Below the pieces are notes generated by a model. It was not told the origin of the DNA. It ran no database searches and saw only the letters and a program-made list of their open reading frames with translations. 64,000 bases of DNA from Flavobacteriales bacterium. GTDB lineage: Bacteria > Bacteroidota > Bacteroidia > Flavobacteriales_F > PHOS-HE28. Location of the stretch: the NCBI GenBank assembly GCA_016712535.1, contig JADJQW010000002.1, forward strand, positions 520,254-584,253. Reading direction: 5' to 3'. The translations under genes were made by a program, and so were the position numbers. Below are positions 9,777-58,900 of the stretch, piece by piece (positions within the stretch are counted from its first letter, which is position 1; each line of letters starts with the position of its first letter).

Positions 9777-10795
9777 GCCCACACCGGGCTCCCCTCACTG
9801 CAATTCCTGCACATCTCGATGCTGCTGCGCGATTGCAGCAGTGAGCGCCGGAAATCGTTGTAGGCATCGCTGTGCCACAACTCGCGGAAGCCCTGCGTGC
9901 GCAGGTCACCGAGAACATGGTGCGCATCCTTGTCGAAGCAGCAGGGCACCACACGGCCGTCCCAAGTGATCACGCAGCTGTGCCACATCTTCCAGCAGTT
10001 GTCCTCGAGCTTGTTCTTCACCTCCCACACGCCTGAGTCGCTGCGCCGATAGCGCGCGTATTCGTCCTGCGAGGGGATCAGCGGGTGATCGTCCTTCGGA
10101 TCGTAGATCTGCGCCGTCTTCAGCCAGAGCTCATCCACGCCCAGTTCGCGGGCCATCTTGCGCGCCTCGGGGATCTGGTGCTCATTGGGCTTCACCACCA
10201 GGAACTGGAAGACCACATGCGGCGTTCGGCTCTTCAGCCTGCGCTTCCACTCGACGATGCGCTTCGTGCCTTCGATCACCTTCGAGAGCTCGCCTTCGCG
10301 CCGGTATTGCGCATAGGTCTCTTGCGTGGTGCCATCGAGCGAGATGATGAGCCGCGACAGTCCGCTGCGCACGGTGGCCTCGGCTTTCGCATCGTCGAGG
10401 AAGTGCGCGTTGGTGCTGGTGGCGGTGTAGAGTCCCTTCTCATGAGCGTAGCGCACCATGTCCAGGAAGCCGGGATTGATGTACGGCTCCCCTTGGAAGT
10501 AGAAGGTGAGGGCCCAGATGTCCGGTGCGAGCTCGTCGATGACGCGCGTGAAGAGGTCCTGCTTCAGATTGCCCGTGGGCCGGGTGAAGCTGCGGAGGCC
10601 GCTGGGGCATTCGGGGCAGCGCAGGTTGCAGGCCGTGGTGGGCTCGAAGCTGATGCTGAAGGGCAGGGCGCCGATGCGGGGCTCTCTCGTTCGCTTGGCG
10701 CGTTGGAAGCTGGCCCAAAGCGCGGCGGCATTGCGCAAGCGCCGAGGCGTCGCATAGCGGCCCCATTCCAGCGCATCCTTCGCCCGCGCGATCAT
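9773..10795 (-). CDS. Radical SAM / SPASM-domain protein (HpnH-like layout, inferred)
   Basis: CNLRCPEC (CX3CX2C) cluster near the N-terminus and a Cys-rich C-terminal SPASM-like region (PCCFDKD...MCRNCSEG). Start chosen at Met 10795; the longer ORF extends to 10981. Converges on frr with a 4-bp overlap. Diverges from the MMPL gene. Confidence 0.7.
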   Translation of the reverse strand: MIARAKDALEWGRYATPRRLRNAAALWASFQRAKRTREPRIGALPFSISFEPTTACNLRCPECPSGLRSFTRPTGNLKQDLFTRVIDELAPDIWALTFYFQGEPYINPGFLDMVRYAHEKGLYTATSTNAHFLDDAKAEATVRSGLSRLIISLDGTTQETYAQYRREGELSKVIEGTKRIVEWKRRLKSRTPHVVFQFLVVKPNEHQIPEARKMARELGVDELWLKTAQIYDPKDDHPLIPSQDEYARYRRSDSGVWEVKNKLEDNCWKMWHSCVITWDGRVVPCCFDKDAHHVLGDLRTQGFRELWHSDAYNDFRRSLLQSRSSIEMCRNCSEGSPVWA

Positions 10796-10874
10796 GCGAG
10801 CAAGGTAGATCGATGGCCTAGGCCGGAAAGCGTTCCTTTGCCCGGCGCCGGAAATGGCTGGCGCGCGATCATCC

Positions 10875-13283
10875 ATGTGGGCCTGGCTCAGCAGCCGCAT
10901 CCTCCGCAACCGCAACGGCATCCTGGTGGTACTGGGCATGATGACGCTATTCATGGGCTGGGGCATGAGCCGCGTGCGCATGAGCTACCGTTACGGTGGC
11001 CTGCTCCCCAAGGACGATAGCGCTTACGTGCAGTACGAGCGCCTGCTGAGCCGCTTCAGCGAGGATGGCAATGTGATCGTGCTGGCGGTGGAGGACGAAC
11101 GCCTGGCCCAGGTGGGGAACTACCGCGCTTGGTGGCAATTGGGAACCGACCTTAAGGAGCAGCCCGGCGTCGATTCGGTATTCTCTGAGGCTCATCTCTT
11201 CAACTTGCTGCGCGACGATAGCCTCAAGCGCTTCCGCCTGCGCTCAATGGTCCCGGAGCCGCCCCGCACGCAGGCGGAGGCCGACAGCATCCGCGCGCTG
11301 GTGCGCACATTGCCGTTCTACCGCGACCTGCTTTACAACGACAGCACGGGTGCCAGCCTCATGATGGTGTTCGTGAACCCCGAGCGCTTCAACAGCGAGC
11401 AGCGAGGTGACATGGTGGAGTTGATTGATGCACGCGTGCGCGAGTTCGAGGCGACCGGCTTCAAGGTGCGCCGCAGCGGGCTGCCGTACATCCGCACGGT
11501 GGTCACCGGCCTCACCAAGTCGGAGCTGCGACTCTTCACCGGCCTCATGCTGCTGGTGGTGGCGGTGCTGCTGTTGCTCTTCTTCCGGAGCTGGCGCGTC
11601 ATGCTCACCTGCCTCACCGTGGTTGCGGTGGCCGTGGTCTGGGCGTTGGGCACCATCGGCTTGCTGGGCTATCCGATCACGCTCGTGATGGCCATCATGC
11701 CGCCGCTGATCGTGGTGATCGGAATCCCCAATTGCATATTCCTCATCAACAAGTACCACCAGGAGTACGCGGCGCACCGGAACAGGGTGAAGGCGCTGGG
11801 CCGGGTGGTGTACCGCGTGGGCCGGGCCTCCTTCATGACCAACGCCACAACGGCGGTCGGGTTCGGGTCTTTCGTGATCACCTACAGTGATACGCTGCGC
11901 CAATTCGGACTCGTGGCCTCTCTGAACATCATGGCCGTCTTCGCGCTGAGCCTGCTGCTCGTGCCCATCCTCTTCAGCCTGCAAGGCGAACCGAAGGAGC
12001 GCCACCTGGCCCATCTCGACCGCCGCTGGGTGGATAAAGCGACCTCCGGGCTCGAGCGCATCGTGCTGCATCATCGTCCATTGGTTTATGCGGTCACGGT
12101 CATGGTGGTGGTGGTGGGCCTCGTGGGAGTCTCAAGGCTGCGCAGCGATACGCGCGTGGTGGACGACCTGCCGCAGGATCATGCCATCATGGAGGACCTG
12201 CGTTTCCTGGAACAGCGCTTCGGTGGCGTGATGCCTTTGGAGGTGATGGTGGATACGCGCAAGAAAGGGCAGGTGCTGAAGGAGTCGAACCTAAAGCGCC
12301 TGGCGCGCCTGCAGGATTCACTCGCCACCTATCCGGAACTCTCTCGCTCGCTCTCCGTCGCTGATGCGGTCAAGTTCATCAAGCAATCGTTCTACGGCGG
12401 GGATCCCGAGCGATATGCGCTCCTGGCCGGAACGGAGAAGACCTTCATCCTGCCCTACCTCGAGCCGGCCTCAGGGCAGGATGGCGTGGCGCGCGGCTTC
12501 ATCGATGCCGACCGCCGATCGACACGCGTCACCGTGCAGGTGGCCGACATCGGGACCTTGCGCATGGATCCCCTGCTGGCGCGCATGCGCGTGCAGGTCG
12601 ATTCGCTATTCCCTCCGGATAAGTTCGATGCGGTGATCACCGGTACGAGCGTCGTGTTCCTTGAGGGCAGCAAGTACATGGTGAAGAACCTGGCGGTTTC
12701 GCTGGTGATGGCCGTGGTGCTGATCGCTGGCCTGATGGCCCTATTGCTCGGTTCCGTGCGCATGGTGCTCATCTCGCTCGTTCCCAACCTGGTGCCGTTG
12801 GTCGCCACCGCCGGCCTCATGGGCTACCTGGGCATTCCGATCAAGCCCAGCACGATCCTCGTATTCAGCGTGGCCTTCGGCATCGCCGTGGATGATGCCA
12901 TCCATTACCTGTCCCGCTACCGCATGGAGATCAAGCACGCCTCCGGCACGATCCGGCAAGCCGTGCTCTCGGCGCTGCACGAGGCCGGTGTGAGCATGAT
13001 GTACACCAGCATCGTGCTCTTCAGCGGCTTCTCGCTCTTCAGCTTCTCCGAATTCGGGGGCACGCAAGCGTTGGGCCTGCTCATCTCCTTCACCCTGCTG
13101 GTGGCCATGTTCACCAACCTGATCATCCTGCCATCGCTCCTGCTCAGTTTCGAGCGCAGCGTGACGGCCAAGAGCTTCCGTGAACCCTTGCTGGACATCC
13201 TCGACGAGGACCCGGACATCAACATCGAGGAGCTTCAGATCGAAGGCGAAGGCACCCGAACGAATACCGAGAACAGGACTTGA
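10875..13283 (+). CDS. MMPL / RND-superfamily exporter (two 6-TM bundles with large periplasmic loops, HpnN-like architecture)
   Basis: About 800 aa. Two blocks of hydrophobic helices ([14 protein letters not shown]...; [17 protein letters not shown]...) separated by soluble domains, as in MMPL/HpnN-type lipid exporters. Start at Met 10875. Confidence 0.75.
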
Positions 13284-32437: not shown

Positions 32438-34429
32438 ATGAAACGCATCCGTACCCTCTCCGCTCGCACTTTCGCAATCGCTGTAATCGTAGGCCTCGTG
32501 TCCGTGCTGGTGGCTTGGAACCAGGACGGGCTTCCGGAAGCCAAGGCGTACCACTCGCAGGCCGAGATCGACGCTTTCCGAGGCGGCGGACAAGGGCTCT
32601 CCAGCGGCGCCAACAACTTCTTCCGCGCCAGCGGCGATTGCTACGGCTGCCACGGCCCGGACAACATCGGCCCGGTGTTCGCCAACCGCGACGCCAACGG
32701 GCACGATGTGAACCCCATCGATTCCTGGCGCAGCAGCATGATGGGCAACAGTGCCCGTGATCCCTTCTGGCGCGCCAAGGTGAGCCATGAGGTGAGCGTG
32801 AATCCGGGCCATCAGACGGCATTGGAGGACAAATGCACCAGCTGCCATGCACCCATGGGCCGCTACGACAAGCACCTCATGGGAGCGGGACCCTTCAGCA
32901 TCGCTGAGCTCGTGCAGGATCCCATCGCCCTCGATGGCGTGAGCTGCCTGGCCTGCCATATGCAGAAGCCGGATAGCTTAGGCCTGCTCTTCAGCGGCAA
33001 CCTGAAGTTCGAGACCAGCGGCATCCTCTATGGACCCTACGGAGGACCGGAGGAAGAGCCCATCTTCGGATCGCCCATGGCCGGCTTCGTGGGCTACGAG
33101 CCGCTTTGGGGGCCTCACCTAAGTGATGCAGGCACCTGCGCCGGCTGCCATACGCTCATCACTGAGACCGCCGACCTCGATGGCAATCTCACGGGCGATG
33201 AATTCGTGGAGCAGGCCACCTACCACGAGTGGCTCAACTCGTCCTACAACACCGATGCGGATCCCGAGAACGGCCTCAGCTGCCAGGCCTGCCACATGCC
33301 GCGCATCAGCGACGCCGTCGTGATCTCCGCCCTCTATGATTTCCTCACCCCGCGCACGCCTTTCGGTAAGCACCACCTTGTCGGCGCCAACGTGTTCATG
33401 CTGAACCTGCTCAAGCACAATAACACCGCGCTCGAGCTCACGGCCAACCAGGTGCATTTCGACAGCACCATCGCACGCACCGAACGCATGCTTCAGCAGC
33501 AGACCCTCCTGATCGAGACCTCGGTCATCGACCGCACCGCTGACCTCGCGTCCATCGATGTGAAGCTCACCAACCTCGCCGGCCACAAGTTCCCGAGCGG
33601 CTACCCCGCGCGCCGCGCCTTCATCGAGCTGCATGTGCAGGACGACGCGGGCAACACCCTCTTCCGCAGCGGCAATTGGGACGGCACCTATGAGGTCGTG
33701 GGTCACGATGCCGATTGGGAGCCTCACCACGATGTGATCACCAGCGAGGATCAGGCCCAGATTTATGAGATGGTCATGGGCGATGTGAATGGCGATAAGA
33801 CGACCGTCCTCGAGCGCGCGAAGGAGCCATTGAAGGACAACCGCCTCGCTCCGCTCGGATTCACCACCTCGCACATCAGCTACGACACCACGCTGATCGC
33901 CGGTGTCCCGCCCGAAGACCTTGACTTCAACCGCTTCACCAATGGCACCGAGGGCAGCGGCACCGACATCACGCATTACCAGATCGCCATGGGTGGCTAC
34001 TCCGGCGCGATCACCATCACCGCTCGCGTGTGGTACCAGAGCGCGCCGCCGCGCTGGATGGAGGAGATGTTCGAGTTCAACACGCCCGCCATCGACACCT
34101 TCCGGGACATGTACGAGGCCGAGGACGGCAGCCCGACGCTGGTGAAGGAGGAGGTGATCGTGGATACGAGCCTCGAGATCGACAACCTCGCCGAAGCAGG
34201 CATCCGCATCTTCCCCAATCCAGTGCGCGATGGACTGCTCCGCATCGAGGGCATCAGCGAGAAGGTGCGCAGCATCGAGGTGCTCGATATCAAGGGAGCG
34301 CGTCTGGCCCTGTTGCGCCGCAACCTCGAGCAAAGCTTCACCGTGCGGCTGCCCGACGCGCCCGGCACCTACCTGGTGGTGATCGAAGTGGCCGGCAAGC
34401 GCTTCGTGGAGCGCGTGGTGAGGCCCTAG
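32438..34429 (+). CDS. Pentaheme c-type cytochrome with a T9SS type-A C-terminal sorting domain
   Basis: Signal peptide. Five CxxCH motifs (CYGCH ~aa68, CTSCH ~133, CLACH ~170, CAGCH ~234, CQACH ~282), then a ~280-aa haem-free domain. C-terminus IRIFPNPVRDGLLRIEG...GTYLVVIEVAGKRFVERVV is a T9SS CTD. Confidence 0.75.
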   Translation: MKRIRTLSARTFAIAVIVGLVSVLVAWNQDGLPEAKAYHSQAEIDAFRGGGQGLSSGANNFFRASGDCYGCHGPDNIGPVFANRDANGHDVNPIDSWRSSMMGNSARDPFWRAKVSHEVSVNPGHQTALEDKCTSCHAPMGRYDKHLMGAGPFSIAELVQDPIALDGVSCLACHMQKPDSLGLLFSGNLKFETSGILYGPYGGPEEEPIFGSPMAGFVGYEPLWGPHLSDAGTCAGCHTLITETADLDGNLTGDEFVEQATYHEWLNSSYNTDADPENGLSCQACHMPRISDAVVISALYDFLTPRTPFGKHHLVGANVFMLNLLKHNNTALELTANQVHFDSTIARTERMLQQQTLLIETSVIDRTADLASIDVKLTNLAGHKFPSGYPARRAFIELHVQDDAGNTLFRSGNWDGTYEVVGHDADWEPHHDVITSEDQAQIYEMVMGDVNGDKTTVLERAKEPLKDNRLAPLGFTTSHISYDTTLIAGVPPEDLDFNRFTNGTEGSGTDITHYQIAMGGYSGAITITARVWYQSAPPRWMEEMFEFNTPAIDTFRDMYEAEDGSPTLVKEEVIVDTSLEIDNLAEAGIRIFPNPVRDGLLRIEGISEKVRSIEVLDIKGARLALLRRNLEQSFTVRLPDAPGTYLVVIEVAGKRFVERVVRP

Positions 34430-34447
34430 CGCTTCTACCTTGCCGCC

Positions 34448-35659
34448 ATGAAGACCAGAAGCCTGCTGCTCGTCGCAGCGTTCGCGCCATTGCTCGCGGG
34501 CGCCCAGCATCCCGTGATCCAAGGCATCCTCGATGAAGTGCGCATCGACAGCATGATGGGGTGGGTGAGCGAGGTCAGCGGCGAGGTGCCTGTGATGATT
34601 GATGGGCAGGAACACACCCTGCTGAGCCGGCACAAGAACAACGAAGGCAACAACCTCGCTCAGGCCTGGCTGATGCAGAAGCTCGTGCAGCTGGGCTATG
34701 CGCCCGTGGAGCAGCCCTTCAACAGCACGGGAAGGAACATCCTGGTGACCAAGCCCGGCAACGGGAGCACCGAGGAGATCGTGATCATCTGCGCGCACTA
34801 CGATGCCATGCCCGCTGGCATCGTGAATGCACCGGCGGCCGACGATGACGGCAGCGGCGTGGCTGCGGTCCTGGAGGCGGCGCGGGTGCTGCGCGACATC
34901 GACTTCGTGCATCCCATCGTGTTCGCGCTCTGGGACGAAGAGGAGCAAGGCAAGGTGGGCAGCGCATTCTATGCAGGCGCGATGGCCGCGAACGATGCGC
35001 TCATCAAGGCCGCGATCAACATGGACGCCATCGCCTACGACGGCAATGCCGATGCGAAGGCGCGCATCCACACGCGGCCCATCGCCAACTCGCTGGCCAT
35101 CGCCGATACGGTCTTCAGCGTGCATCAGCAATACGGCATCGGCCTCGACCTGATCCTCACCAACCCCGGCGCCACCTACAGCGACCACGCTTCGTTCTGG
35201 AACGAGGGCTACGGTTCCGTGCTCGTGATCGAAGAGTTCACCAACGACGGCAACCCGCATTACCACACGCCCACCGACCTCACGCAATACTTCGACGTGC
35301 CGTATTATGAGAAGCTCGCCAAGCTGAGCATCGCCAGCACGGCCGCGCTTGCGATCCCGGTCACGGTCGACATGAACGTGGTGGAGGTCAACGCCGCGCC
35401 CCTGACGCTCTACGCTTACCCGAACCCCGCTGGAGATGCCGCAGGGCTATGGATCGAAATGCCCGTTGCCAGCCGTGCGCGCCTTTCAATCCACGATGCG
35501 CTTGGCCGCGAGCTGGACCTGCTTCATGACGGCATGCTCCCGAGCGGGAAGTCAGCGTTCACGGTTGACCTGCAAGGGCTGCCGGCCGGCGGTTATGTGG
35601 CCCGCGCGGCGATCGAAGGCCGCGAGGTCAGGTCGGTGCGGCTGATGAAGCTGCCCTGA
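34448..35659 (+). CDS. M28-family aminopeptidase with a T9SS C-terminal sorting domain
   Basis: ICAHYDAMP...ADDDGSGVAAVLE...ALWDEEEQGKVGS...SDH. M28 Zn-ligand pattern. C-terminus LYAYPNPAGDAAGLWIEM...GGYVARAAIEGREV is a T9SS CTD. Starts 19 bp after the cytochrome gene. Confidence 0.75.
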   Translation: MKTRSLLLVAAFAPLLAGAQHPVIQGILDEVRIDSMMGWVSEVSGEVPVMIDGQEHTLLSRHKNNEGNNLAQAWLMQKLVQLGYAPVEQPFNSTGRNILVTKPGNGSTEEIVIICAHYDAMPAGIVNAPAADDDGSGVAAVLEAARVLRDIDFVHPIVFALWDEEEQGKVGSAFYAGAMAANDALIKAAINMDAIAYDGNADAKARIHTRPIANSLAIADTVFSVHQQYGIGLDLILTNPGATYSDHASFWNEGYGSVLVIEEFTNDGNPHYHTPTDLTQYFDVPYYEKLAKLSIASTAALAIPVTVDMNVVEVNAAPLTLYAYPNPAGDAAGLWIEMPVASRARLSIHDALGRELDLLHDGMLPSGKSAFTVDLQGLPAGGYVARAAIEGREVRSVRLMKLP

Positions 35660-36277
35660 TCAGTCCTTGGTGAAGGGCTTGGCCAACACCCGGCCATCGC
35701 GCTCGGTGATCAACAGGAAGTAATTCGAGGGCTTCAGCGCGCTCACATCGAGCGCGAGCACGCGACTCGCCACGATGCCCTGTTCCATCACCGCTTCGCC
35801 GCTGAGGTTGATCACGGTGATCGATCGCGCATCTACGCCACCCAAGTCAACGGTCAGCCAATCGGCGGCCGGTATCGGGCTCAGGCGCACGTCGGCGGTT
35901 TCCCCCACCTCGGCCACGCCCGTGGGGTCGATCACCGTGATGGTGCCGAACTGCGTGGCTGCATGCCCATTCCCATCGCATTCGTAGTTGTACACGCCCG
36001 GGATGGTGAAGGTGAAGGTGTACGTCCAATTCCCGCTTGCGGTGTTGCCGCTCGTGAAGCCTTGCGGATTGCTCGGGAAATCGCTCAAGGTGCCATTCAC
36101 GTTGTGCGTGCCGCTCTGGTTCTCCCAGCGCACCTGATCGCCCACGTCGATGGTGAGGAATTGCGGGCTGTAATAGGGGTCGGTGCTGCCGATGGTGCTG
36201 CCTCCGGATTGCACGATCCAGAGTGCGGCGGAAGCGGTGAAGGGGAGAAGCAGCAGGGATGAGGCGAGAAGACGCAT
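35660..36277 (-). CDS. Cupredoxin (plastocyanin/azurin-like type-1 copper) domain protein with a T9SS C-terminal sorting domain
   Basis: Signal peptide MRLLASSLLLLPFTASA. Candidate Cu ligands H (GTHNVNG) ... C-(x4)-H-(x3)-Q (YECDGNGHAATQ), i.e. azurin-like spacing with Gln at the axial position. C-terminus VINLSGEAV...NYFLLITERDGRV is a T9SS CTD. Confidence 0.65.
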   Translation of the reverse strand: MRLLASSLLLLPFTASAALWIVQSGGSTIGSTDPYYSPQFLTIDVGDQVRWENQSGTHNVNGTLSDFPSNPQGFTSGNTASGNWTYTFTFTIPGVYNYECDGNGHAATQFGTITVIDPTGVAEVGETADVRLSPIPAADWLTVDLGGVDARSITVINLSGEAVMEQGIVASRVLALDVSALKPSNYFLLITERDGRVLAKPFTKD

Positions 36278-36358
36278 GCGGTTCTTGAGTTTGGCGCGAA
36301 AGATACCCGGGGTACTAACCGGGCCCGATCTTCCTGCGCACCATGCTTGGCATCGCAC

Positions 36359-38587: not shown

Positions 38588-39649
38588 TCACTCCGGATCA
38601 CTGAACGCCGGATCGTTCAGGAAGCGCTCATCGGTGAGGGCTTGCAGGAAGGCCTTGAGGTCGGCGCGCTCCTGGGCATCGAGGTCGATCTGGCCGCTGG
38701 TCCATGGCCACATGTGATTGTCCAGATTGGGCTCATTGATGTTCACGCTGTCGGCGTAGAAGTCGATCACTTCTTCAAGCGTGGCGAAGCGCCCATCGTG
38801 CATGTAGGGCGCGGTGACGGCAATGTTGCGCAGGCTGTTCACCTTGAAGCGGCCGCGGTCGCTCACGAGTCCGGTGATCTCCGCCAATCCTTGATCCGGT
38901 CCGGGCGCCATGCCGATGTTGCGTAGGTCGTGGTCCTGGAAGAGCGGCGCCATGTGGCAGAGGTCGCACTCGGCTTCGCCGAAGAAGAGGTCCATGCCGC
39001 GTATCTCGGCATCGGACATGGCCGTGGCATCACCGCTGTAGAAGTAGCGGTCGAAGGGCGAATCGAAGCTGAGCAGCGTGCGCTCGAATTGCGCTATGGC
39101 TTTCACCACGCGCACGCTGTCAATGTCCGGTGATCCGAAGGCGCGTGCGAAAAGCTCGGGATAGTTGGGCAGTCGGCGGAGCCGTTCCTCCACCACGGGC
39201 CAGCTGTTGCGCATCTCGAGGTGATTCACCACGGGGCCGAAGGCTTGCTCTTCCAACGAAGCCGCGCGGCCATCCCAGAAGAGGAGATGGTCCCAGAGCA
39301 TGTTCTGCACGGGCATCGATTGCCGCCGCCCCACGGACCCATCCGATCCGAGCGAGAATCTACGCGGGTCGCTGAAGGCGAACTCCTGCTGGTGGCAGCT
39401 GCTGCAGCTGATCGAGTAGTTGTCCGACAGCGCTTTCTCATAGAACAGCTTGCGGCCCAGCGCAACGCCTTCCACGGTGAGCGGATTGTCGGCGGGCAGG
39501 TTCATCGGATGCGGCAGGTTCTGCGTCCAAGGCGGCAGTTCCAGCGCCAAGGGCGTGGGCCCCGTGAAGGCATCGGCCTGCTCCACGGCGGGATCCTTCC
39601 GGCACGCCGCGATGGCGAGCAAGGCGAAGAGGAAGGGGAGGCGCCGCAT
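38588..39649 (-). CDS. Di-haem cytochrome c peroxidase (CCP/MauG family), lipoprotein
   Basis: Lipobox LLAIAAC. Two haem sites, CSSCHQQ and CDLCHMAP. Conserved ...VTAPYMHDGRFATLEEVIDFY block. Confidence 0.8.
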   Translation of the reverse strand: MRRLPFLFALLAIAACRKDPAVEQADAFTGPTPLALELPPWTQNLPHPMNLPADNPLTVEGVALGRKLFYEKALSDNYSISCSSCHQQEFAFSDPRRFSLGSDGSVGRRQSMPVQNMLWDHLLFWDGRAASLEEQAFGPVVNHLEMRNSWPVVEERLRRLPNYPELFARAFGSPDIDSVRVVKAIAQFERTLLSFDSPFDRYFYSGDATAMSDAEIRGMDLFFGEAECDLCHMAPLFQDHDLRNIGMAPGPDQGLAEITGLVSDRGRFKVNSLRNIAVTAPYMHDGRFATLEEVIDFYADSVNINEPNLDNHMWPWTSGQIDLDAQERADLKAFLQALTDERFLNDPAFSDPE

Positions 39650-39676: not shown

Positions 39677-40750
39677 TCAACGGCGGTGACCGGGGGGGCC
39701 GAAACGCGGATTAACGAGGAAAGCCGAATCGGTGAGCGTGCGCAGGAAGGCCACCAGGTCCGTGCGGTCCTGCTTGGAGAGCCGCACTTCGCCTTTGCGC
39801 CAGGGCAGCATGTGCTCATCGAGCGTGGGCGATGCCGTGAACACGTCATCCGCATAGAAATCGACGACCTGCTCCAGCGTGGCGAATCGGCCATCGTGCA
39901 TGTAGGGCGCCGTAACGGTGATGTTGCGGAGCGAAGGGGTCTTGAATCGCCCCGCGTGCCAGGGCAGGCCCGTGCGAGCACCCATGCCGAGGTCCGTGGG
40001 CACGCTGTCGAGCCCGATGTTCAGCACATGATGCCCCTTGAAGAGCGGCGGCTCGTGGCAATCGACGCAATGCGCGCGGGTGAAGAAGAGGTCCTTGCCG
40101 CGCTTCTCCTGCGCATTGAGCGCATCGGCCTGCTTCCCGTAGAAGTAGCGGTCGAATCGCGAATCGAGTGAGACCATGGTGCGCTCGAACTGCGCCAGGG
40201 CGAATGCGATGCGCAGGCTGTCGATGCGCGCATCGCCGAAGGCGGCGGCGAAGAGCGGCGGATAACGCTTGTCCTGCGCAAGGCGATGGCTCACTTCGAT
40301 CCAGCGGCTCGCCATCTCGCGGTGCGCGGTCACCGGCTCGAAGGCCTGCAGCTCGAGGCTGAGGGCGCGGGCGTCCCAGAAGAAGAAATGGTCCCACGCC
40401 AGGTTCATCAAAGGCATGCTGTTGCGCGCGGTGCGCTGGCCGCTCATGCCGCTGGAGAAGCGCGCGCTATCCGCGAAGGCGAAGCGCTGCAGGTGGCAAC
40501 TGGCGCAAGAGAGCGATCCATCGGCGCTCAGCGCTTTCTCATGGAAGAGCATGCGGCCCAGCGCTGCGCCTTCCACGGTGAGCGGATTATCGTAGGGGGA
40601 ATCGAGGCGGAGCGCGGTGTCGGCGATAGCCCAGGCGGGGAGCTCGAGTCGCAGGGGTGTTGATCCGGTTGGTGCAGCGTTCTTGGGCGGATGATGGCAT
40701 GCCATCAGGGCCGCGAGAGCGGTCGGAAGTACGAATCGATTCGCTGACAT
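39677..40750 (-). CDS. Di-haem cytochrome c peroxidase paralog (CCP/MauG family), lipoprotein
   Basis: Lipobox ALMAC. CASCHLQ and CVDCHEP haem sites. About 55% identical to the downstream paralog (VTAPYMHDGRFATLEQVVDFY). Confidence 0.8.
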   Translation of the reverse strand: MSANRFVLPTALAALMACHHPPKNAAPTGSTPLRLELPAWAIADTALRLDSPYDNPLTVEGAALGRMLFHEKALSADGSLSCASCHLQRFAFADSARFSSGMSGQRTARNSMPLMNLAWDHFFFWDARALSLELQAFEPVTAHREMASRWIEVSHRLAQDKRYPPLFAAAFGDARIDSLRIAFALAQFERTMVSLDSRFDRYFYGKQADALNAQEKRGKDLFFTRAHCVDCHEPPLFKGHHVLNIGLDSVPTDLGMGARTGLPWHAGRFKTPSLRNITVTAPYMHDGRFATLEQVVDFYADDVFTASPTLDEHMLPWRKGEVRLSKQDRTDLVAFLRTLTDSAFLVNPRFGPPGHRR

Positions 40751-40764
40751 GGCGGGGTCCGGAT

Positions 40765-41067
40765 TCAGCGCCGCCGCTTCTTCGATCGCAATGGCCTGCG
40801 ACTCGTATGGAAAACACTGTACACAATGGCTAGGCCATCCGTCAACTCGAACACGATGCAATACGGGAAGTCCTGGACCGGGGCGTATCGGAATCCGTTC
40901 ACCCGTTCAGGGTAGCTGCATGTCACGCGAACCAGGTCCTCAATGGCTTTGAGCACTGCTGTTTCGAAGCGCGCGCCAAGTTTCGGTTGCTCGAGCTCGT
41001 AGTGCAATGAGGCCTCCTGCCATTCCTGCCAAGCCAGGTCGCGCAGCTCAATGGCCTTCGCCTTCAT
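40765..41067 (-). CDS. Type II toxin, RelE/ParE family
   Basis: 100 aa; ...FRYAPVQDFPYCIVFELTDGLAIVYSVFHTSR matches the RelE/ParE C-terminal pattern. Start overlaps the antitoxin stop (ATGA). Confidence 0.65.
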   Translation of the reverse strand: MKAKAIELRDLAWQEWQEASLHYELEQPKLGARFETAVLKAIEDLVRVTCSYPERVNGFRYAPVQDFPYCIVFELTDGLAIVYSVFHTSRRPLRSKKRRR

Positions 41068-42466: not shown

Positions 42467-42619
42467 GTCTATAGGCGGACAAGTTTACCGGAGAAAGCAC
42501 AGCCATGAGTGCAGGGTAATTGCGGCGCCGGATGCCTAGCCTATTGCGATTGCTCTTAGATTCGCTCTGCCGTGGCCAATAGCATGGTCCGAATTAGGTC
42601 TGAACAAACACGACCAGAC

Positions 42620-43588
42620 ATGCACTCGGCATTCCAGCTTTGCCTTGCGCTGCTTGCGCCCGGCTTGTGCGCACAAAACCTGGTGCCCAATCCGAGCTTC
42701 GAGATGGTGGATACATGCCCGCAGTTTCCCCTCGTGCTGGGCTACCAGCCAGGGGCGGTGCCCCAGCATTGGTACAGTTCGAGCGATACCCCGGATTATT
42801 TCAACTCTTGTGAGGATAACGATGTTGGCGGTGTACCTAACAACGTTTTCACGCACCAATTGGCTCACGATGGGGGCGCATATTCGGGAATGTGGTCATT
42901 CCTCGCGGACGACCATAGGGAGATGATTGGAGTTGAGTTATTGAGCGACCTGGTCGTCGGTGAGACCTACTACGCAAGTTTCTACGCCAACGCTGCTTTC
43001 GGCGGCAGTCAGGGAACCGGCCGCGTATGCGATAATCTCGGGTTGCTCTTTTGCACAGCCCCGTACTACTGGCTCTATGGGTCGTCCATGCCGGAATTCG
43101 GCTGTCGCAACTACGCGCACGTGTGGTCAACCGAGGTCATCAGCGATACCTCTGCGTGGGTGCTCGTGAGCGGGGCATTCGTTGCGGATTCAGCCTATCG
43201 GTACATGGTTGTTGGGAATCACTTCGACAACGCCAACACGGTTACCGATAGCCTGGGCCCGAACCCGAACGCCTATCAATTGGTTGATCAGGTCTGTGTC
43301 TCACTGAACCCTTCGCAATGCCCGTTGATCAACGGAGCGGGAGAGTTTTCCAGGACATGGATTGGTGTCCATCCGAATCCTGCGAAGGATGTATTCCAGG
43401 TCTCCTGGGAAGGGCGGGCCAACCGACTGCATGTGTTCGATATGGTCGGTCGGAGCATCTGGCAGGCCACAACACAGGGCGAGAATGGTCTTGTGGTCGA
43501 TGTTGCGCACTGGGCTCGTGGCCACTATGCAATGATTCTCGAAGGGGATAGCTGGTGCTACTCGCACAAGTTAGTTCTGGTGGAGTGA
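42620..43588 (+). CDS. Hypothetical secreted protein with a T9SS type-A C-terminal sorting domain (lower-GC gene)
   Basis: Signal peptide MHSAFQLCLALLAPGLCAQN. C-terminus IGVHPNPAKDVFQVSWEG...GHYAMILEGDSW is a T9SS CTD. Noticeably more A/T at third codon positions than neighbouring genes. Confidence 0.55.
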   Translation: MHSAFQLCLALLAPGLCAQNLVPNPSFEMVDTCPQFPLVLGYQPGAVPQHWYSSSDTPDYFNSCEDNDVGGVPNNVFTHQLAHDGGAYSGMWSFLADDHREMIGVELLSDLVVGETYYASFYANAAFGGSQGTGRVCDNLGLLFCTAPYYWLYGSSMPEFGCRNYAHVWSTEVISDTSAWVLVSGAFVADSAYRYMVVGNHFDNANTVTDSLGPNPNAYQLVDQVCVSLNPSQCPLINGAGEFSRTWIGVHPNPAKDVFQVSWEGRANRLHVFDMVGRSIWQATTQGENGLVVDVAHWARGHYAMILEGDSWCYSHKLVLVE

Positions 43589-43614: not shown

Positions 43615-45672
43615 ATGGAGAACTGGAAAACCTTCAAAAGCCTTGGCTTGGTCGTGTTCCTATTCGTCAGTGCGAAAGGCAAGGGTCAAGTATCGCAGCT
43701 GAACAATACGGTTACCGCCGTGACCGACTACATAGGCTGCGACGTGAACAGCAACCAGCCGTTGCGATTCACAACGCAGTTGAACTTTCCACATCAATGG
43801 CGAACGGATAATGCACTCCGGATGCGGCTTACACAAACGCTTACGGGCCAGTCAGTGAACGGCTAAGGAAACCGGGACCTGTCAGGGCATCTGGGAATTG
43901 GCCTGTTCACGGATCCGGATGTGAACCGGCCCTTCTCCATGCTTCACATTGATTCGGCGGGCGGGCAGGACACCGGCTACCGCCCGTGGATGAAGGTGGG
44001 CATGACGCTCACTCAATGGTCGGACCTGAGCTACTTCGGCCTGAAATCGGAGAGCAACGACGACAACCATGCGGTGATTGCTTGGAGCGATAACCAAACG
44101 GGCTTGGATGGCCCGGACCTGTTGAAATTCATCTTTTTGATGAACAACAACACAAGCGGTCCAACGGCCGCTTTGGACAATGGTTTGGAGGCGGCCCGCT
44201 TCCTGCCACACACCAGCGGGAATCAATCGTTCTTCGGTGTTGGAGATTGGTTCACGGCTGGCCTCAATCCGACGGAACGCGTCGATCTTCTTGATGGTCG
44301 CTTACGCATCCGCCAGCTTCCGGATGATTCGGAGACTGACCAGGCCTTCAAGGTGATGGTAGTGGACGACACGAACGACCCGTTGGAACGCGGTGTGGTG
44401 AAGTGGAAGAACATCAACCTAAGCGCTGATTGCGATTGGGTGGTGCAGACTGGAGACCCGCATGTGTCGAGCGTGTACGATGGGAGCAGCTGCTTGTGGG
44501 ACCGTCGGCATGGCGTGGGCATCGGCATGGATGTGCCCCGCGCCAAATTGCACGTGCATCACAACAACTATGAGTTGCTAGCTCGCATTGGTACCTGGTC
44601 TAGGACCGAGTCGGATGATTTTCAGAATGAGTTCCAGGGGGTCTTGGGCGAATGTGGTCCTATAGATCCTGACGGCTTCTTTGGCCACGCTGAAGGAGTA
44701 CAAGGACTCGCCTACAACTGCAAGACCACCATCGGTGTGCATGGCCACGGCCGTTACGACTCCCAACAACCGGGAACCGGCACCGGATTCCTGGTGGGCG
44801 TGCTCGGCGTGGCCGAGTACGATCAGCCGTGGCAGGCTTCATTCTCCGCAGGCGTGTATGGTCGATCCATAGCCCCGCAAGGCGCTGGCCAGGCATGGGC
44901 TGGTTTCTTCCAGGGCGATGTGATGATCACCGGGAACGGTTTTGTTAATGGGGCCATCCCCATCACCTCCGATGCTCAGTTCAAGACCGGCGTGGAGGAA
45001 TTGACAGGCGCCTCGGAGTTGCTATCTGCCTTGCAGCCGAAGCGCTACTCCTTCAATGACCTTGGGCAATCCGTGGTCGGTTTGCCGGATGGTGAGCAAC
45101 TCGGGTTCATCGCGCAGGAATTGGAGGAGGTGCTTCCAGATTTGGTGCATGAAACACAGCGACCGGCTGATCTGAATGATGCAGGCGATGTCGTCCAAGA
45201 AGCCATCGACTACAAAGCGGTGAACTACATCGGGCTCATCCCGGTCCTGGTTGCGGGCTTCCAGGAATTGCAAGGGCGCGTTGCGGCGCAGGAGTCGGTG
45301 ATCGCGCAGCTCCAGGAAGAACTCGCCGCCTGTTGCGCCGCCTCGAACGACGATGGCACGCGCTCAATTACGGGGAGCACGACCGATGAGGGCTCCATCA
45401 CCCCCACCCAGGAGCGCCTGCTCCGCATCGCACCCAATCCCTTCACCGACCGCACCACGCTCTTCTGCACGCTGGAGCACGCAGGCCGCATGCAGTTGCT
45501 GGCCAACAGTACCGATGGCCGCAGCTTGATGGTGCTGAGCGAGGGCCAGCGCGAGGCCGGTGAGTTCCAGTATGAATGGAGCACGGAGAAACTCGCGCCC
45601 GGCGTGTACTACATCAACCTCTTGCTCGACGGCGAGCCGGTGGTGAAGCGCGCGGTGAAAGTGGGGAAGTAA
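43615..45672 (+). pseudogene. Tail-fibre-domain / S74 intramolecular-chaperone-domain surface protein with a T9SS CTD, interrupted by a single in-frame TAA at 43864..43866
   Basis: ORF 43615..43866 (signal peptide MENWKTFKSLGLVVFLFVSAKG) and ORF 43921..45672 are in the same frame, separated only by TAA. The downstream part has no start or signal peptide of its own. It ends with an endosialidase-chaperone-like segment (LSALQPKRYSFNDLG...GFIAQELEEVLPDLV...IDYKAVNYIGLIPVLVAGFQEL) and a T9SS CTD (LRIAPNPFTDRTTL...GVYYINLLLDGE). Confidence 0.5.
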
Positions 45673-55970: not shown

Positions 55971-58900
55971 CTACTTCAGCACAGTCACGTGCCCGACCCT
56001 TTCGGTCAGCTCGTTGGTGAGCTTGTTCTTGAACTTCATCTTCCACACATACACATCCTCCTGCACCACTTCGCCTTGGTAATCGCCGCCCCAGGGCGCA
56101 TGCACCTGTTCACTCCGGGTGAGCAGCAATCCCCATCGGTCGAAGATCATGAACTCGTAGTCCTTCACGAGCTGCGGAAGGTTGAAGATGGGCATGAACG
56201 TGTCGTTCTCGCCGTCGCCATTCGGGGTGACGGCATTGGGCACCCAGACCACGAGCGCGTCGAGCACCTCGACCGGCTCGCAATGCGTGTCGGCGCAGCC
56301 GTTGGCATCGTACGCGGTGAGGCAGACCATGTAAGTATCACCCAATCCGCCGGGGAAGGTGAACGATGGTGAGGTGGCTGTGCTGCTTCCCACGCCTCCG
56401 AAATCCCAAGAGAAGCTCACCGCATTCGGCGATGAGGTGTTCGTGAAGTCCGCGGTTGATGAGCCTACGTAAAGCGTCTCTGGCGCGAAGTCGAAGTCGG
56501 CCACAACGGGTGCCGGGCGCGCGATCGTGGCCATTCCAGAAGCCGAGCAGCCGTTCGCATCCTGCATCAGCACCACGTATTGCCCAGGGCAGAGTCCGGT
56601 GAACACGCTGCCGGAGCCGAATGCGCCGCCGTTCAAGCTGAAGAGCGCGCCTTCTGGATCGACCACTGTGATGCTGCCGTCGCAAGCGCCGGGACAGGTC
56701 TCGTCGGTGGCGAGGATCGTGTCGATCACCAGCGGTTCCGGTTCATCGATGCTGAACGGAACGATGGTGAAGCATCCGTTCTCGTCGAGGACGGTCACGG
56801 TGTATTCACCAGCGCAGATGCCCGTTGCACTGGGCGAATTGCCCGCGATGGAGCCTGACCAAGCGTAGTCGTATGCACCGTTGCCGCCCGTTGCGGATAC
56901 GCTTGCCGTTCCATCGCAAACGCCGTTGCAGATGGCGTCGGTCAAGGCGACTACGGGAACGATCGCATCCGTGAAGATGATCGTCACCTCATCCTGCGTG
57001 GCGCAGCCATCAGTGGATAGCACGCTCCAGGTTAGCGTGTATGGGCCGCCGGCGATCGCGGTCACGGTGCTCGTAGGCGAACCGGGATCGCTGAAGGTCA
57101 TGCCGGCCGGGCCGCTCCACGAGCCGCTTGCCCAACTGCCCGTGGCGTTCAGCGTGTATTCGAGCGTGCAGCTCACTGCATCGGGCCCGGCGTTGGGCGG
57201 CGCGATCAGGAAAACCGTGGCCGTTGAGCTCGCATAGGCATTGGGGCAGGGCAATAGGCCGAGGACCGTGTAGGTGTACACGCCTTGCGCGCTTGTCGCG
57301 GGGTCGAAGATGCCGTTGCTCGGCTGGCCTCCGGGACCGGTCCAAGTGCCACCCGCCATCGGGGTTCCGCCCAGCAACGAGAAGAGCTCGATGGCCGCGG
57401 CCTCCGGGCATAGTGTGATGGCGCCGTTCGTTCCGGCATCGGGCAAGGGGTTCACCGCCATGGTGACCGTGGCGCTCTGGTCCAAGCAGGGTGCTGTGGC
57501 TTGCACGGTGTACACATAACTGCCGGGCGCGTCCGTCGCAGGGTCGAAGTTGTTCTCGCTGGGCGTGCCGTTCGGTGCTGTCCATTCACCGCCCGCATCC
57601 GGCGATCCGTTCAGGAGGTTGAAGAGCGCGACAGGCGCATCATCGGAGCAGAGCGTGGCGCTGCCATCGATTCCAGGATCCACCGGGGCAACAATGCTCA
57701 TGGCCACAATGCTGGTGTCATTCTCACAAGGCGCAGGAACGAATAGGATGTAGGTGTAAGTGCCAGCGGCTTGTACGCTCGGATCGAAGCCGCCCGTCGC
57801 CGGGCTTCCATCCGGCGCAAACCATGATCCTCCTGCATCAGGGCTTCCACCGAGCAGATCGAAGAGGTCGATGGGAGCGTTATCGCCACAAAGCGTGGAA
57901 GCGCCATCGATTCCTGCATCCGCGTTCGAGAGCACGTTCACGGTGATCACCGCCGAGGCCGACGGACAGGGCGCCACGCCATTCACGGAGTAGGAGTAAT
58001 CGCCCGGAGCGCTTGCGCCCGGCGTGAAGATCCCGTTGGAAGTGCCGTTCGGCCCCGTCCATGTTCCTCCGGGATCGGCAGCGCCAAGCAGGGGGTAGAG
58101 GTCCACTGCATCTCCGACCACGCATAGGTTCAGGATGTCATCCGCTCCAGCGTTGGGCAGCTGCGTCACGGCCACCGTTACACTGGCCGCATCCGCCGGG
58201 CATGGTGCAGCGCCTTGAACGGTATAGGAGAACACGCCGGGTGCATCGGTTGCGGGATCGAAGGTCCCGCTGTAAGAGCTGCCACCGCTCGTAGTCCAGC
58301 TGCCGCCGGGCTCTGGCGTTCCTCCAAGGATGGCGAAGAGGTCCTGAGGCGCATTGCTGAAGCAGAGCGTAATTGCGCAATCGAGTCCTGCATCAGGCGG
58401 CGAGACCACATCCACCGTGACCGTGCTGCTCACGCTGGCGCATGGCGGCGGAACCGCGATCGTGTAGGTGTATACGCCGCTGGCCATCACAGCAGGATCG
58501 AAGAGGCCATTGAAGGCCGTTCCTGCGGGGGTGGTCCACAGGCCACCTTGATCAGGAGAGCCCTCGAGGTAGCTGAAGAGGTCATCCGGGGCAGCATTTC
58601 CACAGATGGTGAGGAAGCCAGGGCCGCCGGGATCGGGTTCGGTCACGACGGTCAGGGTTGCCGTGGCGGCATCAGCAGGGCAAGGCGTGGTTCCATTCAC
58701 CGTGTAGGTATACGCTCCCGCGCTCATCGTTGCAGGGTTGAAGGCCCCGCCTATCACCGGCGATGGTCCGCTCCATGTGCCGCCTGCATCTGGCGTGCCT
58801 CCCAGCGAGTTGATCAATGCAACGGCCGGGCTTGTGATGCACAGGGTCAATGCACCGTCGATTCCTGCATCCGGAGGCTGGATGACATTCACAACGACCG

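Follow-up and report, generated by a model that had tools for sequence, protein, structure and literature searches.

Outward-facing multihaem c-type cytochromes have been described in Shewanella, where MtrC and its relatives (OmcA and MtrF) are ten-haem lipoproteins that the type II system exports and that dock on the MtrAB porin-cytochrome conduit. Cytochromes of the PHC fold have an unrelated architecture, in which a helical five-haem cap sits on an Ig-like stem. One of them is the low-potential c552 of T. tepidum (PDB 5ZE8), which has been linked tentatively to sulfur metabolism (PMC11976967). Another is MccSep (ExtKL) of G. sulfurreducens, a periplasmic polysulfide reductase with the Sec peptide loop GHSIPDG-U325-P, whose catalysis requires Sec325 and the haem-ligating Cys239 and in which R83 binds the substrate (PMC13510729). 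Work on cable bacteria has placed c552, ExtKL and Gsu2801 in one PHC family, related to AvECN (PMC11976967). The c552/MccSep-fold family is large and almost uncharacterised, and only MccSep has a proven function.

A survey in mSystems in 2024 predicted extracellular multihaem cytochromes "especially among Bacteroidota" (PMC11495043); it covered the wastewater ecosystem and Danish MAG set to which our organism belongs, and its data include GCA_016705545.1 (PHOS-HE28), the nearest species representative. Conditions in activated sludge alternate between oxic and anoxic, and extracellular electron exchange has been proposed there for Bacteroidota (PMC11495043). That survey counts CxxCH motifs and predicted localisation and gives prominence to Saprospiraceae proteins that have very large numbers of haems; T9SS sorting, the pentahaem family described below and its fold are not mentioned in it. 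Here we analyse a gene in a 64-kb stretch of DNA from a wastewater Flavobacteriales bacterium, which we call the window. The initial annotation had held that an outward-facing multihaem cytochrome is not a described trait of Bacteroidota. After the survey this view is partly outdated, since extracellular multihaem cytochromes had already been predicted in the phylum, and what is new here is the predicted T9SS route and the fold assignment.

Organization of the gene and its product

The product of the gene (Table 1) contains five CxxCH motifs, C68YGCH, C133TSCH, C170LACH, C234AGCH and C282QACH, all within residues 68-286. They use all ten cysteines of the 663-aa protein, so that chance is no credible explanation for them, and none of the five varies among 120 close homologues or in a 55-sequence alignment of the wider family. 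The proposal that the protein is a pentahaem cytochrome was thus borne out. The N-terminal segment resembles a signal peptide, with K2, R3, R5 and R10, a hydrophobic stretch at residues 11-27 and A35-K-A37 ahead of Y38, as judged by reading of the sequence and its hydropathy, and A37 is conserved at a level of at least 90% in close homologues. With five CxxCH motifs behind a signal-like segment, the protein is by its sequence a multihaem c-type cytochrome. An AlphaFold model, which is haem-free, reached a pLDDT of 76 and a pTM of 0.72, the pLDDT falling under 50 in the segments 260-312 and 425-433. An antisense ORF of 722 aa (33119-35287) that overlaps the cytochrome gene was rejected as a high-GC artefact.

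Table 1. Coordinates of the cytochrome gene, its parts and neighbouring genes, numbered within the window
Feature	Position	Strand	Basis or remark
Pentahaem cytochrome precursor with predicted T9SS sorting, whole gene	32438..34429	+	ORF list and translation; ATG start, 663 aa
Probable Sec signal peptide, residues 1-37	32438..32548	+	sequence reading and hydropathy profile
Helical five-haem domain, residues ~38-355	32549..33502	+	
CxxCH codons	32639-32653, 32834-32848, 32945-32959, 33137-33151, 33281-33295	+	
Met101-Met102, Met102 a candidate axial ligand (His/Met haem)	32738..32743	+	alignment only
Ig-like beta-sandwich "stem" domain, residues ~357-580	33506..34177	+	enlarged relative to c552
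Loop G382-H-K-F-P-S-G-Y389-P390	33581..33607	+	HMMER alignments to 9wt8, 5ze8
Type-A T9SS C-terminal sorting domain (CTD), residues 591-663 and stop codon	34208..34429	+	
M28 aminopeptidase with CTD-like tail	34448..35659	+	Peptidase_M28 E 4.6e-31; TIGR04183 22.0 bits vs 23
Cupredoxin with T9SS CTD, possible partner	35660..36358	-	Copper-bind 26.4 vs 21.2 bits; Por_Secre_tail E 9e-5
Two CCP_MauG/MbnH-like di-haem proteins	38588-39649 and 39677-40861	-	CCP_MauG E about 1e-53 each

Fold and relation to described cytochromes

The cytochrome matches T. tepidum c552 in structure and is related to Geobacter MccSep/ExtKL by sequence homology. The family profile gave an E-value of 1.8e-12 against 5ze8 and of 2.2e-9 against MccSep (9wt8), with the five haem motifs in register. 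A five-haem helical domain is packed on an Ig-like domain, the haem motifs follow in the same order, and the protein belongs to the PHC fold of the c552/MccSep type. A haem-free domain of ~280 aa had been described as a unit of its own; it is instead part of the pentahaem fold, namely its Ig-like stem, where the family-invariant His383 lies, itself likely to be a haem ligand. From homology with MccSep we expect a haem chain in which Fe-Fe distances are 9.5-15.5 A, and likewise the Y-shaped five-haem arrangement of that protein. Our cytochrome, which is predicted to be extracellular, has the fold of the PHC family defined in the work on cable bacteria, to which the archaeal nanowires AvECN have been related (PMC11976967); AvECN was absent from its fold matches.

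The loop H-x-[MF]-P-[TS]-G-x-P is common to c552 and our cytochrome, and the corresponding MccSep loop (GH-x-[IF]-P-x-G-x-P) is in register, so that the segment G382-Y389-P390 is, by HMMER alignment, the equivalent of the MccSep active-site loop. In other respects the three proteins differ. The c552 protein is soluble, 435 aa long and without a CTD, whereas ours has a CTD and a larger stem of about 220 aa; c552 has His (in "SMH") where ours has M102, and Ala where the loop of ours has Tyr. The host of c552 is a phototrophic sulfur bacterium, whereas the hosts of our protein are aerobic heterotrophs of sludge and freshwater. MccSep is a periplasmic tetramer, while our protein carries the T9SS CTD. 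Tyr389 takes the Sec position, at which Y, F, I or H is found in the family; in the alignment C239 of MccSep falls on a T/G segment and R83 on M101, and the ExtKL model NF040886 scored 19 bits against a cut-off of 250. With both members of the Sec/Cys catalytic pair missing, no free Cys and so low a score, a polysulfide reductase of the MccSep type was ruled out.

Six His or Met residues are conserved throughout the family in the alignment (M102, M214, H227, H312, H383 and H430), which is enough to make all five haems six-coordinate. M102, found in about 97% of the wider family, lies opposite the His of c552, and M101 opposite R83 of MccSep. At least one haem would probably be His/Met-ligated and hence of higher potential, as would suit the oxic or micro-oxic habitats of the hosts. 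The loop residues G382, H383, P386, G388, P390 and R392 are invariant across the family together with a cluster of residues in the stem domain, where H430, Y443, K466, D467 and R469 are strongly conserved. The latter could mark a catalytic or substrate site, and this conservation leaves room for an enzymatic role.

An HMM comparison with multihaem-cytochrome families had also been suggested. Its scores spoke against a grouping with MtrC/OmcA, NrfA/NrfB, c554 or HAO, and the c552/MccSep pentahaem fold was found instead. OmcA/MtrC membership was rejected because the protein has five haems and not ten, has no lipobox Cys and scored 15.7 bits against 209.3 with TIGR03507. A weak local similarity to MtrC, seen with PF22113 for domains II/IV (25.1 bits, cut-off 30) and with 7o7g (E 0.47), covered two haem motifs. 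For NrfA/NrfB, c554 and HAO there was no Pfam or NCBIfam hit at E<=0.01 and no CxxCK motif, and NrfA structures matched the family profile in no more than one or two motifs, with E-values between 1.6e-4 and 0.8. Although our protein, like the Shewanella proteins, is a multihaem c-type cytochrome that by prediction faces outward, it differs from them in its five haems, unrelated fold, T9SS signal and lack of conduit genes.

Sorting domain and predicted export

The initial annotation had also assigned a type-A T9SS CTD to the tail of the cytochrome, and this assignment was upheld. TIGR04183, the model of this domain, matched residues 591-661 of 663 with 28.3 bits, above its curated cut-off of 23, while Pfam Por_Secre_tail (PF18962) remained below its own (17.4 vs 27). 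The ~75 C-terminal residues have the Ig-like beta-sandwich of such domains and superpose at 2.3-2.7 A on solved CTDs of the RgpB, mirolase, NucA and RemA type, including CTDs in complex with the translocon; in both the TIGR04183 match and the beta-sandwich the tail is like that of these type-A cargo proteins. The FPNP and GxY motifs and the basic/hydrophobic C-terminal end are kept among homologues of 59-100% identity. Since the CTD is genuine, crossing of the outer membrane is the expected fate of the protein, and we consider its pentahaem identity and its T9SS export route, as predicted from the sequence, to be highly likely.

Other T9SS cargo is encoded in the window as well, namely three type-A proteins (the M28 peptidase, the cupredoxin and the product of 42572-43588) and an SprB-like protein with a type-B CTD, the CHU_C domain (55971-63995), and this points indirectly to a T9SS in the host. 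The window contains no T9SS core genes and no cytochrome-maturation genes (Ccs/Ccm); that the host makes c-type cytochromes is indirectly supported by the two di-haem CCP genes. The T9SS cargo known to us consists of proteases, glycosidases, nucleases and adhesins, and our search of the searchable literature found no T9SS cargo with covalently bound haems. If our cytochrome is exported as predicted, the T9SS can carry a folded multihaem cytochrome with its covalent haems, which would be such a cargo class.

Distribution of the family

At 50% identity the family forms 2739 clusters. Searches recovered more than 4900 homologues, among them a 100% identical protein on a 2.4-Mb contig of a Flavobacteriales MAG. 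The 80 best genome matches were all uncultured Bacteroidota MAGs; the best were Flavobacteriales and Saprospiraceae, the nearest belonging to the family PHOS-HE28, as does the nearest species representative, GCA_016705545.1. Among the matches listed in protein searches and the genome scan there were MAGs only and no cultured host.

All 120 close homologues possess the CTD, as do 43 of 116 full-length representatives of the family; the other 73 have none, and it was absent in 110 of 110 members of an Anaerolineae-type clade. The CTD-less relatives are presumably periplasmic or otherwise extracytoplasmic. These counts come from an iterated HMM, as an HMM built from close homologues alone missed known CTDs. 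When the tree is read as an unrooted bipartition, a single split has all 58 CTD-bearing sequences on the same side; midpoint rooting divided the group. Because a five-haem protein of the c552 fold is here joined to a genuine T9SS tag, it is probable that in hundreds of Bacteroidota species a multihaem electron carrier is located outside the cell.

Gene neighbourhood

The M28 gene begins 18 nt downstream of the cytochrome gene on the same strand, with no terminator-like site on the + strand between them, and the two are probably co-transcribed. Their adjacency is conserved solely in the close clade. The cupredoxin, whose true start is probably the Met of MRLLASS, shows ligand-like residues, a His in GTHNV and Cys and His in YECDGNGH, and its axial residue may be Gln or Phe; it adjoins the cytochrome gene in nine loci, all within the collinear clade. 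Each of the di-haem proteins has two CxxCH motifs and no CTD, and the first starts with MRRLPFLFALLAIAAC, which resembles a lipoprotein signal. Without a CTD, and with one lipoprotein-type signal, they would be periplasmic and so in a compartment different from that of the exported proteins. Their copy number among relatives is 0-2.

The cupredoxin and the two peroxidases had been combined with the cytochrome into a small redox module. All of these neighbours are real, but such a module is doubtful: they co-occur with the gene only in about 10 close Flavobacteriales loci, in which the entire region is collinear (DnaB, AccA, MurB, peptidases) and peptidase genes are interspersed. CTD-like tails were found in 37 of 146 immediate neighbours of the gene, as against 76 of 683 ORFs within 8 kb; the cupredoxin of the window and an FG-GAP/UnbV_ASPIC protein are among those neighbours. 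The sole recurrent long-range partner, an FG-GAP/UnbV_ASPIC protein with a CTD, is present in 21 loci and absent from the window.

Could the cytochrome be the outer end of a respiratory chain? No porin-cytochrome conduit or other multihaem cytochrome is encoded nearby, either here or in 80 related Bacteroidota loci, and the close-clade peroxidases are the only other c-type cytochromes that recur within 8 kb in 85 loci. Nor is a conduit present near CTD-less relatives (Anaerolineae, Burkholderiales-type and other contigs), where the gene stands among unrelated genes; it is solitary in every phylum examined. With no conduit nearby in any of these lineages, an MtrC-like respiratory role is without genomic support, and a link of the cytochrome to respiration is unsupported.

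Possible function

We propose that the gene product is secreted and that it consists of a pentahaem c-type cytochrome of the PHC fold with an added type-A T9SS domain. The precursor would cross the inner membrane through Sec, and, to judge from the motifs, five haems would be attached in the periplasm, where the protein would fold. The CTD would then bring the folded holo-protein of ~64 kDa to the T9SS translocon, as its validation and the knowledge of T9SS cargo suggest, and would be removed, leaving the cytochrome surface-anchored or released. Outside the cell it would act as an electron-transfer protein and not as a MccSep-type catalyst, with Tyr389 at the Sec site and Met101-Met102 at the Arg site. 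It might exchange electrons with diffusible or surface-bound partners such as the cupredoxin, Fe, humics, reactive oxygen species or secreted dehydrogenases, and would not terminate a dedicated respiratory conduit, as no lineage encodes one with the gene. An exported electron-transfer cytochrome is in our opinion the best explanation overall, although we give it no better than an even chance. Our suggestions for its physiological partner and for the way in which electrons flow are tentative, and more probably wrong than right; it is not obvious what a cell would gain from an exported carrier that has no electron route connecting it to that cell, which makes this statement of function weak.

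The conserved loop raises the question of whether the protein is rather an extracellular redox enzyme working at haem 2, an exported analogue of MccSep with other active-site chemistry and possibly polysulfide and other sulfur species, H2O2, superoxide or nitrogen oxides as substrates. The fold and the homology are shared with MccSep, whose active site arises from the same loop, and the loop and stem residues are invariant across the 2739 clusters. Most T9SS cargo are enzymes, and a self-contained enzyme that draws on generic donors would accord with a gene found alone in every phylum examined. A His/Met haem may, moreover, shed its Met ligand and then work as a peroxidase. Yet both catalytic residues of MccSep are missing, M101/M102 occupy the position of its substrate-binding Arg, the conserved His and Met residues suffice to close all five haems, and a reductase would have no electron donor outside the cell; we therefore find an enzyme unlikely. 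Rather less credit still is due to an MtrC/OmcA-like terminal reductase or oxidase of an extracellular electron-transfer pathway, which would reduce Fe(III), Mn(IV) or humics or take electrons from Fe(II), through an unrecognised conduit or shuttles. Such a pathway would be in keeping with the multiple haems, the validated signal for export across the outer membrane and the co-located exported cupredoxin, cytochrome/cupredoxin chains being present in iron oxidisers, and with the weak PF22113 similarity, which is below the cut-off. Against it stand the lack of porin-cytochrome or multihaem genes near the gene in the 85 related loci, the equally solitary CTD-less homologues of other phyla, the TIGR03507 score, five haems instead of ten and the absence of a lipoprotein signal. 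The best genome matches, moreover, belong to Flavobacteriales and Saprospiraceae, which are generally regarded as aerobic polymer degraders, and we infer that probable His/Met ligation speaks against low-potential metal reduction. The extracellular electron exchange proposed for Bacteroidota in the wastewater MAG survey, and the oxic/anoxic cycling of activated sludge, would again favour such a pathway (PMC11495043).

That the protein is an ordinary periplasmic cytochrome, its CTD-like tail being non-functional or a structural beta-sandwich, we hold to be very improbable. MccSep is periplasmic, 73 of the 116 representatives do without a CTD and Por_Secre_tail is below its cut-off. The TIGR04183 score, however, exceeds a curated cut-off, the tail superposes on translocon-bound CTDs, its motifs are conserved over homologues of 59-100% identity, the CTD occupies one coherent side of the tree, and genes for other cargo cluster nearby.

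If the exported electron-transfer cytochrome that we favour is indeed outside the cell, redox-active haem proteins are present on or around very abundant Bacteroidota of wastewater and freshwater. Three questions are affected: which members of flocs under alternating oxic and anoxic conditions exchange electrons with iron, humics and oxygen species; whether extracellular electron transfer exists beyond the classical metal reducers; and what role the c552/MccSep-fold family plays. Perhaps, though we think it improbable, aerobic and facultative Bacteroidota (Flavobacteriales PHOS-HE28, Saprospiraceae, Lewinellaceae and relatives) deploy haem-loaded cytochromes sent out by the T9SS, in some clades with the cupredoxin, as a working extracellular electron-transfer system, coupled to metabolism by shuttles, an unrecognised conduit or secreted dehydrogenases. 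Were this true, there would be a secretion route and a fold for extracellular electron transfer independent of the Mtr/Omc paradigms, in organisms abundant in sludge and freshwater.

Homologues that carry a source name have no other database labels than "hypothetical protein", a generic cytochrome c term or "T9SS type A sorting domain-containing protein". The fold assignment corrects this annotation, as the pentahaem fold goes unrecognised in these labels.

Results

Our ORF list and translation returned the cytochrome gene exactly as the initial annotation had described it; on the plus strand, it starts with ATG and encodes 663 aa. All ten cysteines of the protein belong to its CxxCH motifs, of which there are five (residues 68, 133, 170, 234 and 282). 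Because the G+C content of the window is 62.9%, spurious long ORFs are numerous; the antisense ORF which overlaps the cytochrome and M28 peptidase genes is taken to be such an artefact. Homologues are numerous for the genes on the sense strand and, judged from these, the real gene is the plus-strand frame. A protein 100% identical to the cytochrome is encoded on a 2.4-Mb contig of a Flavobacteriales MAG, and the protein search found homologues in more than 4900 clusters, the best 120 being full length and 59–100% identical. The N-terminus, in which a basic n-region is joined by a run of 17 hydrophobic residues and an A-K-A site precedes Tyr38, would fit a Sec signal peptide. In some close relatives (loci L001/L002 and L007) the gene is duplicated in tandem, giving paralogues of 658 and 663 aa; those of L001/L002 are P0014, which shares 71% identity with our cytochrome, and P0111, which shares 59%.

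At the other end of the protein, residues 591–661 scored 28.3 bits against TIGR04183, the type A sorting domain of the type IX secretion system (T9SS; curated cut-off 23), which supports the annotated C-terminal sorting domain (CTD); the Pfam T9SS tail model scored under its own threshold. Structural matches of the tail, also by Foldseek, were the CTDs of RgpB, RemA and RemZ. Since the CTD motifs are kept in all 120 close homologues, it is unlikely that this tail is a fortuitous beta-sandwich. Further T9SS cargo of the window is listed in the table, and its SprB-repeat protein suggests that the source organism possesses the gliding/T9SS machinery and employs CTDs of both classes. A domain characteristic of phage tail fibres, Peptidase_S74, occurs in a protein whose gene adjoins that of the 338-aa CTD protein.

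None of the curated multihaem families in Pfam and NCBIfam claims the cytochrome. Cytochrome_C7 was barely over its cut-off, whereas scores for the MtrC domain model, TIGR03507 (OmcA/MtrC) and NF040886 (ExtKL) all fell far short of the required values, and the NrfA-type and c554 models gave no match. A diverse profile of the family matched Thermochromatium tepidum c552 (5ZE8; E 1.8e-12) and the Geobacter multihaem selenoprotein MccSep (9WT8; E 2.2e-9), with the stem loop and all five haem motifs in register. The pentahaem cytochrome (PHC) family comprises c552, ExtKL/MccSep and Gsu2801 (PMC11976967; PMC13510729). The annotated haem-free domain of about 280 aa is therefore not a separate one: it is the Ig-like stem of this family. 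The MccSep haems form a branched chain with Fe-Fe distances of 9.5–15.5 Å (PMC13510729), and by homology those of our cytochrome should be arranged in the same way.

An exhaustive HMMER search limited to E<=1e-3 collected 2739 family clusters (50% identity), of which 623 reached E<=1e-30; the five haem motifs and an H-K-[FL]-P-[ST]-G-x-P loop recur in nearly all. Using an iterated CTD HMM built for this analysis, we found a T9SS-type CTD in 120/120 close homologues, in 43/116 full-length family representatives and in 0/110 members of the Anaerolineae-type clade. In a neighbour-joining tree the 58 sequences with a CTD all fall on the same side of a single split, together with twelve others, some with degenerate or replaced tails; the CTD is thus the hallmark of a single coherent branch, in a family that otherwise lacks it. 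Among GTDB species-representative genomes at least 595 stretches encode a relative, and the best 80 are all from Bacteroidota MAGs (Flavobacteriales, Saprospiraceae, Lewinellaceae, Chitinophagales and Crocinitomicaceae). No cultured strain was among the matches listed in the protein searches and the GTDB genome scan. The closest species representative, GCA_016705545.1 (95% identical), belongs to GTDB family and genus PHOS-HE28 (NS9 marine group in MiDAS) and comes from a Danish wastewater plant.

The M28 peptidase gene starts 18 nt 3' of the cytochrome gene, with no terminator-like site between them, and is followed on the opposite strand by genes for the cupredoxin, a DPP-IV peptidase, two CCP/MauG-like di-haem proteins and MurB. 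The same order occurs in about 10 relatives whose cytochromes are 58–95% identical. In these loci DnaB, AccA and MurB are also collinear and the peroxidase genes number 0 to 2, so the arrangement is evidence of shared ancestry and not of a functional module. Of the redox module which the initial annotation had drawn, the genes are there, and the two peroxidases, both lacking a CTD, would be periplasmic as it held, apart from the exported proteins. The best model for the first of them, TIGR04039 (MbnH-type), scored 277, under its cut-off of 363. The cupredoxin has ligand-like residues (His in GTHNV, Cys-x4-His in YECDGNGH) and, with Gln or Phe at the Met position of plastocyanin, may have a stellacyanin-like axial Gln; its true start is probably downstream of the annotated GTG, the signal peptide beginning at MRLLASS. 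In L003, another related locus, DnaB carries a Hint/LAGLIDADG homing-endonuclease intein; the DnaB of other relatives has about 510 aa. Elsewhere in the window, the genes for a radical-SAM/SPASM protein and a transporter overlap by about 130 nt, and one start is therefore probably mis-set.

Outside this collinear clade, essentially no other c-type cytochromes were found within 8 kb, and each CTD-less homologue looked at, on contigs of Anaerolineae, of Burkholderiales type and of other kinds, stands alone amid unrelated genes. Of 80 Bacteroidota loci, 21 have as immediate neighbour a gene for an FG-GAP/UnbV_ASPIC protein of ~950 aa with a T9SS CTD, mostly downstream on the same strand at 14–95 nt. 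As the cytochromes of these 21 loci are only 38–85% identical among themselves (median 45%), this pairing of two T9SS cargo genes is long-lived; it is the only such association found for the cytochrome gene, and the partner gene is absent from the window.

Features of the window and, where a locus is named, of related loci in other genomes
Feature	Position	Strand	Remarks
Radical-SAM/SPASM protein	9773-10981	-
MMPL/RND-type transporter	10854-13283	+	sterol-sensing domain
Pentahaem cytochrome	32438-34429	+	663 aa
Antisense ORF	33119-35287	-	722 aa; longer than cytochrome gene
M28 peptidase			3' of cytochrome gene; T9SS cargo, CTD-like type-A tail
Cupredoxin	35660-36358	-	T9SS cargo, type-A tail
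CCP/MauG-like di-haem protein (first)	38588-39649	-	starts MRRLPFLFALLAIAAC, lipoprotein-signal-like
338-aa protein	42572-43588	+	sole Pfam match Por_Secre_tail
Peptidase_S74 protein	43921-45672	+	583 aa; endosialidase intramolecular chaperone
SprB-like protein (SprB repeats)	55971-63995	-	2674 aa; CHU_C type-B T9SS C-terminal domain
Tandem cytochrome genes, L001/L002	10001-13981
DnaB helicase, L003	4573-7152	+	859 aa
FG-GAP_3 repeats, UnbV_ASPIC, Ig_7, Por_Secre_tail protein, L050	6050-8896	+	equivalents e.g. L026, L043, L047, L060, L077
PQQ-type glucose/sorbosone dehydrogenase (GSDH), L093	21221-21965	-
Fe/Mn superoxide dismutase, L093	12909-13547	-

Discussion

The cytochrome combines a pentahaem motif set and a bona fide type-A CTD with what prediction and comparison indicate is the PHC fold. 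We suppose that its precursor would cross by Sec export, receive haem in the periplasm and be translocated by the T9SS as a folded holo-protein, after which the CTD would be removed and the protein attached to the surface or released; retention in the periplasm is unlikely. Once outside, it might shuttle single electrons among extracellular partners. In its own clade the partner that suggests itself is the exported cupredoxin, and Fe, humics, oxygen species or secreted dehydrogenases could serve instead. In L093, an 8.87-Mb Saprospiraceae-like contig with a CTD-bearing cytochrome, a gene at a distance of 9 kb from that of the cytochrome encodes a GSDH which bears PKD domains and a T9SS CTD, and a superoxide dismutase gene is 1 kb away; a dehydrogenase secreted by the cell would have to pass its electrons to an acceptor outside. 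Could the cytochrome be the MtrC-like terminal of a respiratory pathway? This has no genomic support, as no porin-cytochrome conduit adjoins the gene in any lineage examined.

Is it perhaps an enzyme? MccSep is a periplasmic polysulfide reductase which requires two residues, Sec325 on the loop GHSIPDG-U-P and Cys239, which ligates haem 2 on its distal side; Arg83 binds the anionic substrate (PMC13510729). In our protein the loop is G382-H-K-F-P-S-G-Y389-P, with Y389 in place of Sec325; Cys239 aligns to a Thr/Gly segment, no cysteine is free, and Arg83 aligns to Met101. We therefore reject an MccSep-type enzyme, and since the wider family has Y, F, I or H at the Sec position, there is no nucleophile there. 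Six His/Met residues conserved family-wide in the alignment (M102, M214, H227, H312, H383 and H430) would suffice to supply each of the five haems with its sixth ligand. Met102 stands opposite a His in c552, and at least one haem is probably His/Met-ligated. The alignment thus points to an electron-transfer protein with a higher potential than c552 and not to an open-site catalyst. The conserved loop and four stem residues that are also strongly conserved (Y443, K466, D467 and R469) keep alive the reading as an exported small-molecule redox enzyme.

We found no relevant publication in the searchable literature on the T9SS together with multihaem cytochrome, CXXCH or c-type cytochrome. Extracellular multihaem cytochromes had been predicted, 'especially among Bacteroidota', in a survey of the same Danish MAGs published in 2024, which mentions neither the T9SS nor this family (PMC11495043). 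The claim that such a protein is not a described Bacteroidota trait was thus overstated. What appears to be new is that a covalently haem-loaded multihaem cytochrome is predicted to be T9SS cargo and that it can be assigned to the c552/MccSep fold and told apart from MccSep and MtrC, together with the family's breadth across Bacteroidota and orphan genomic status. Lastly, His117, His125, His263 and His423 (nt 32786-32788, 32810-32812, 33224-33226 and 33704-33706) are invariant in the close CTD-bearing clade, whereas CTD-less relatives mostly have Ala/Ser at the first position, Leu/Tyr at the second, Leu/Ser at the third and Asn at the fourth; exported members may therefore not ligate or surround their haems in the same way as non-exported ones.
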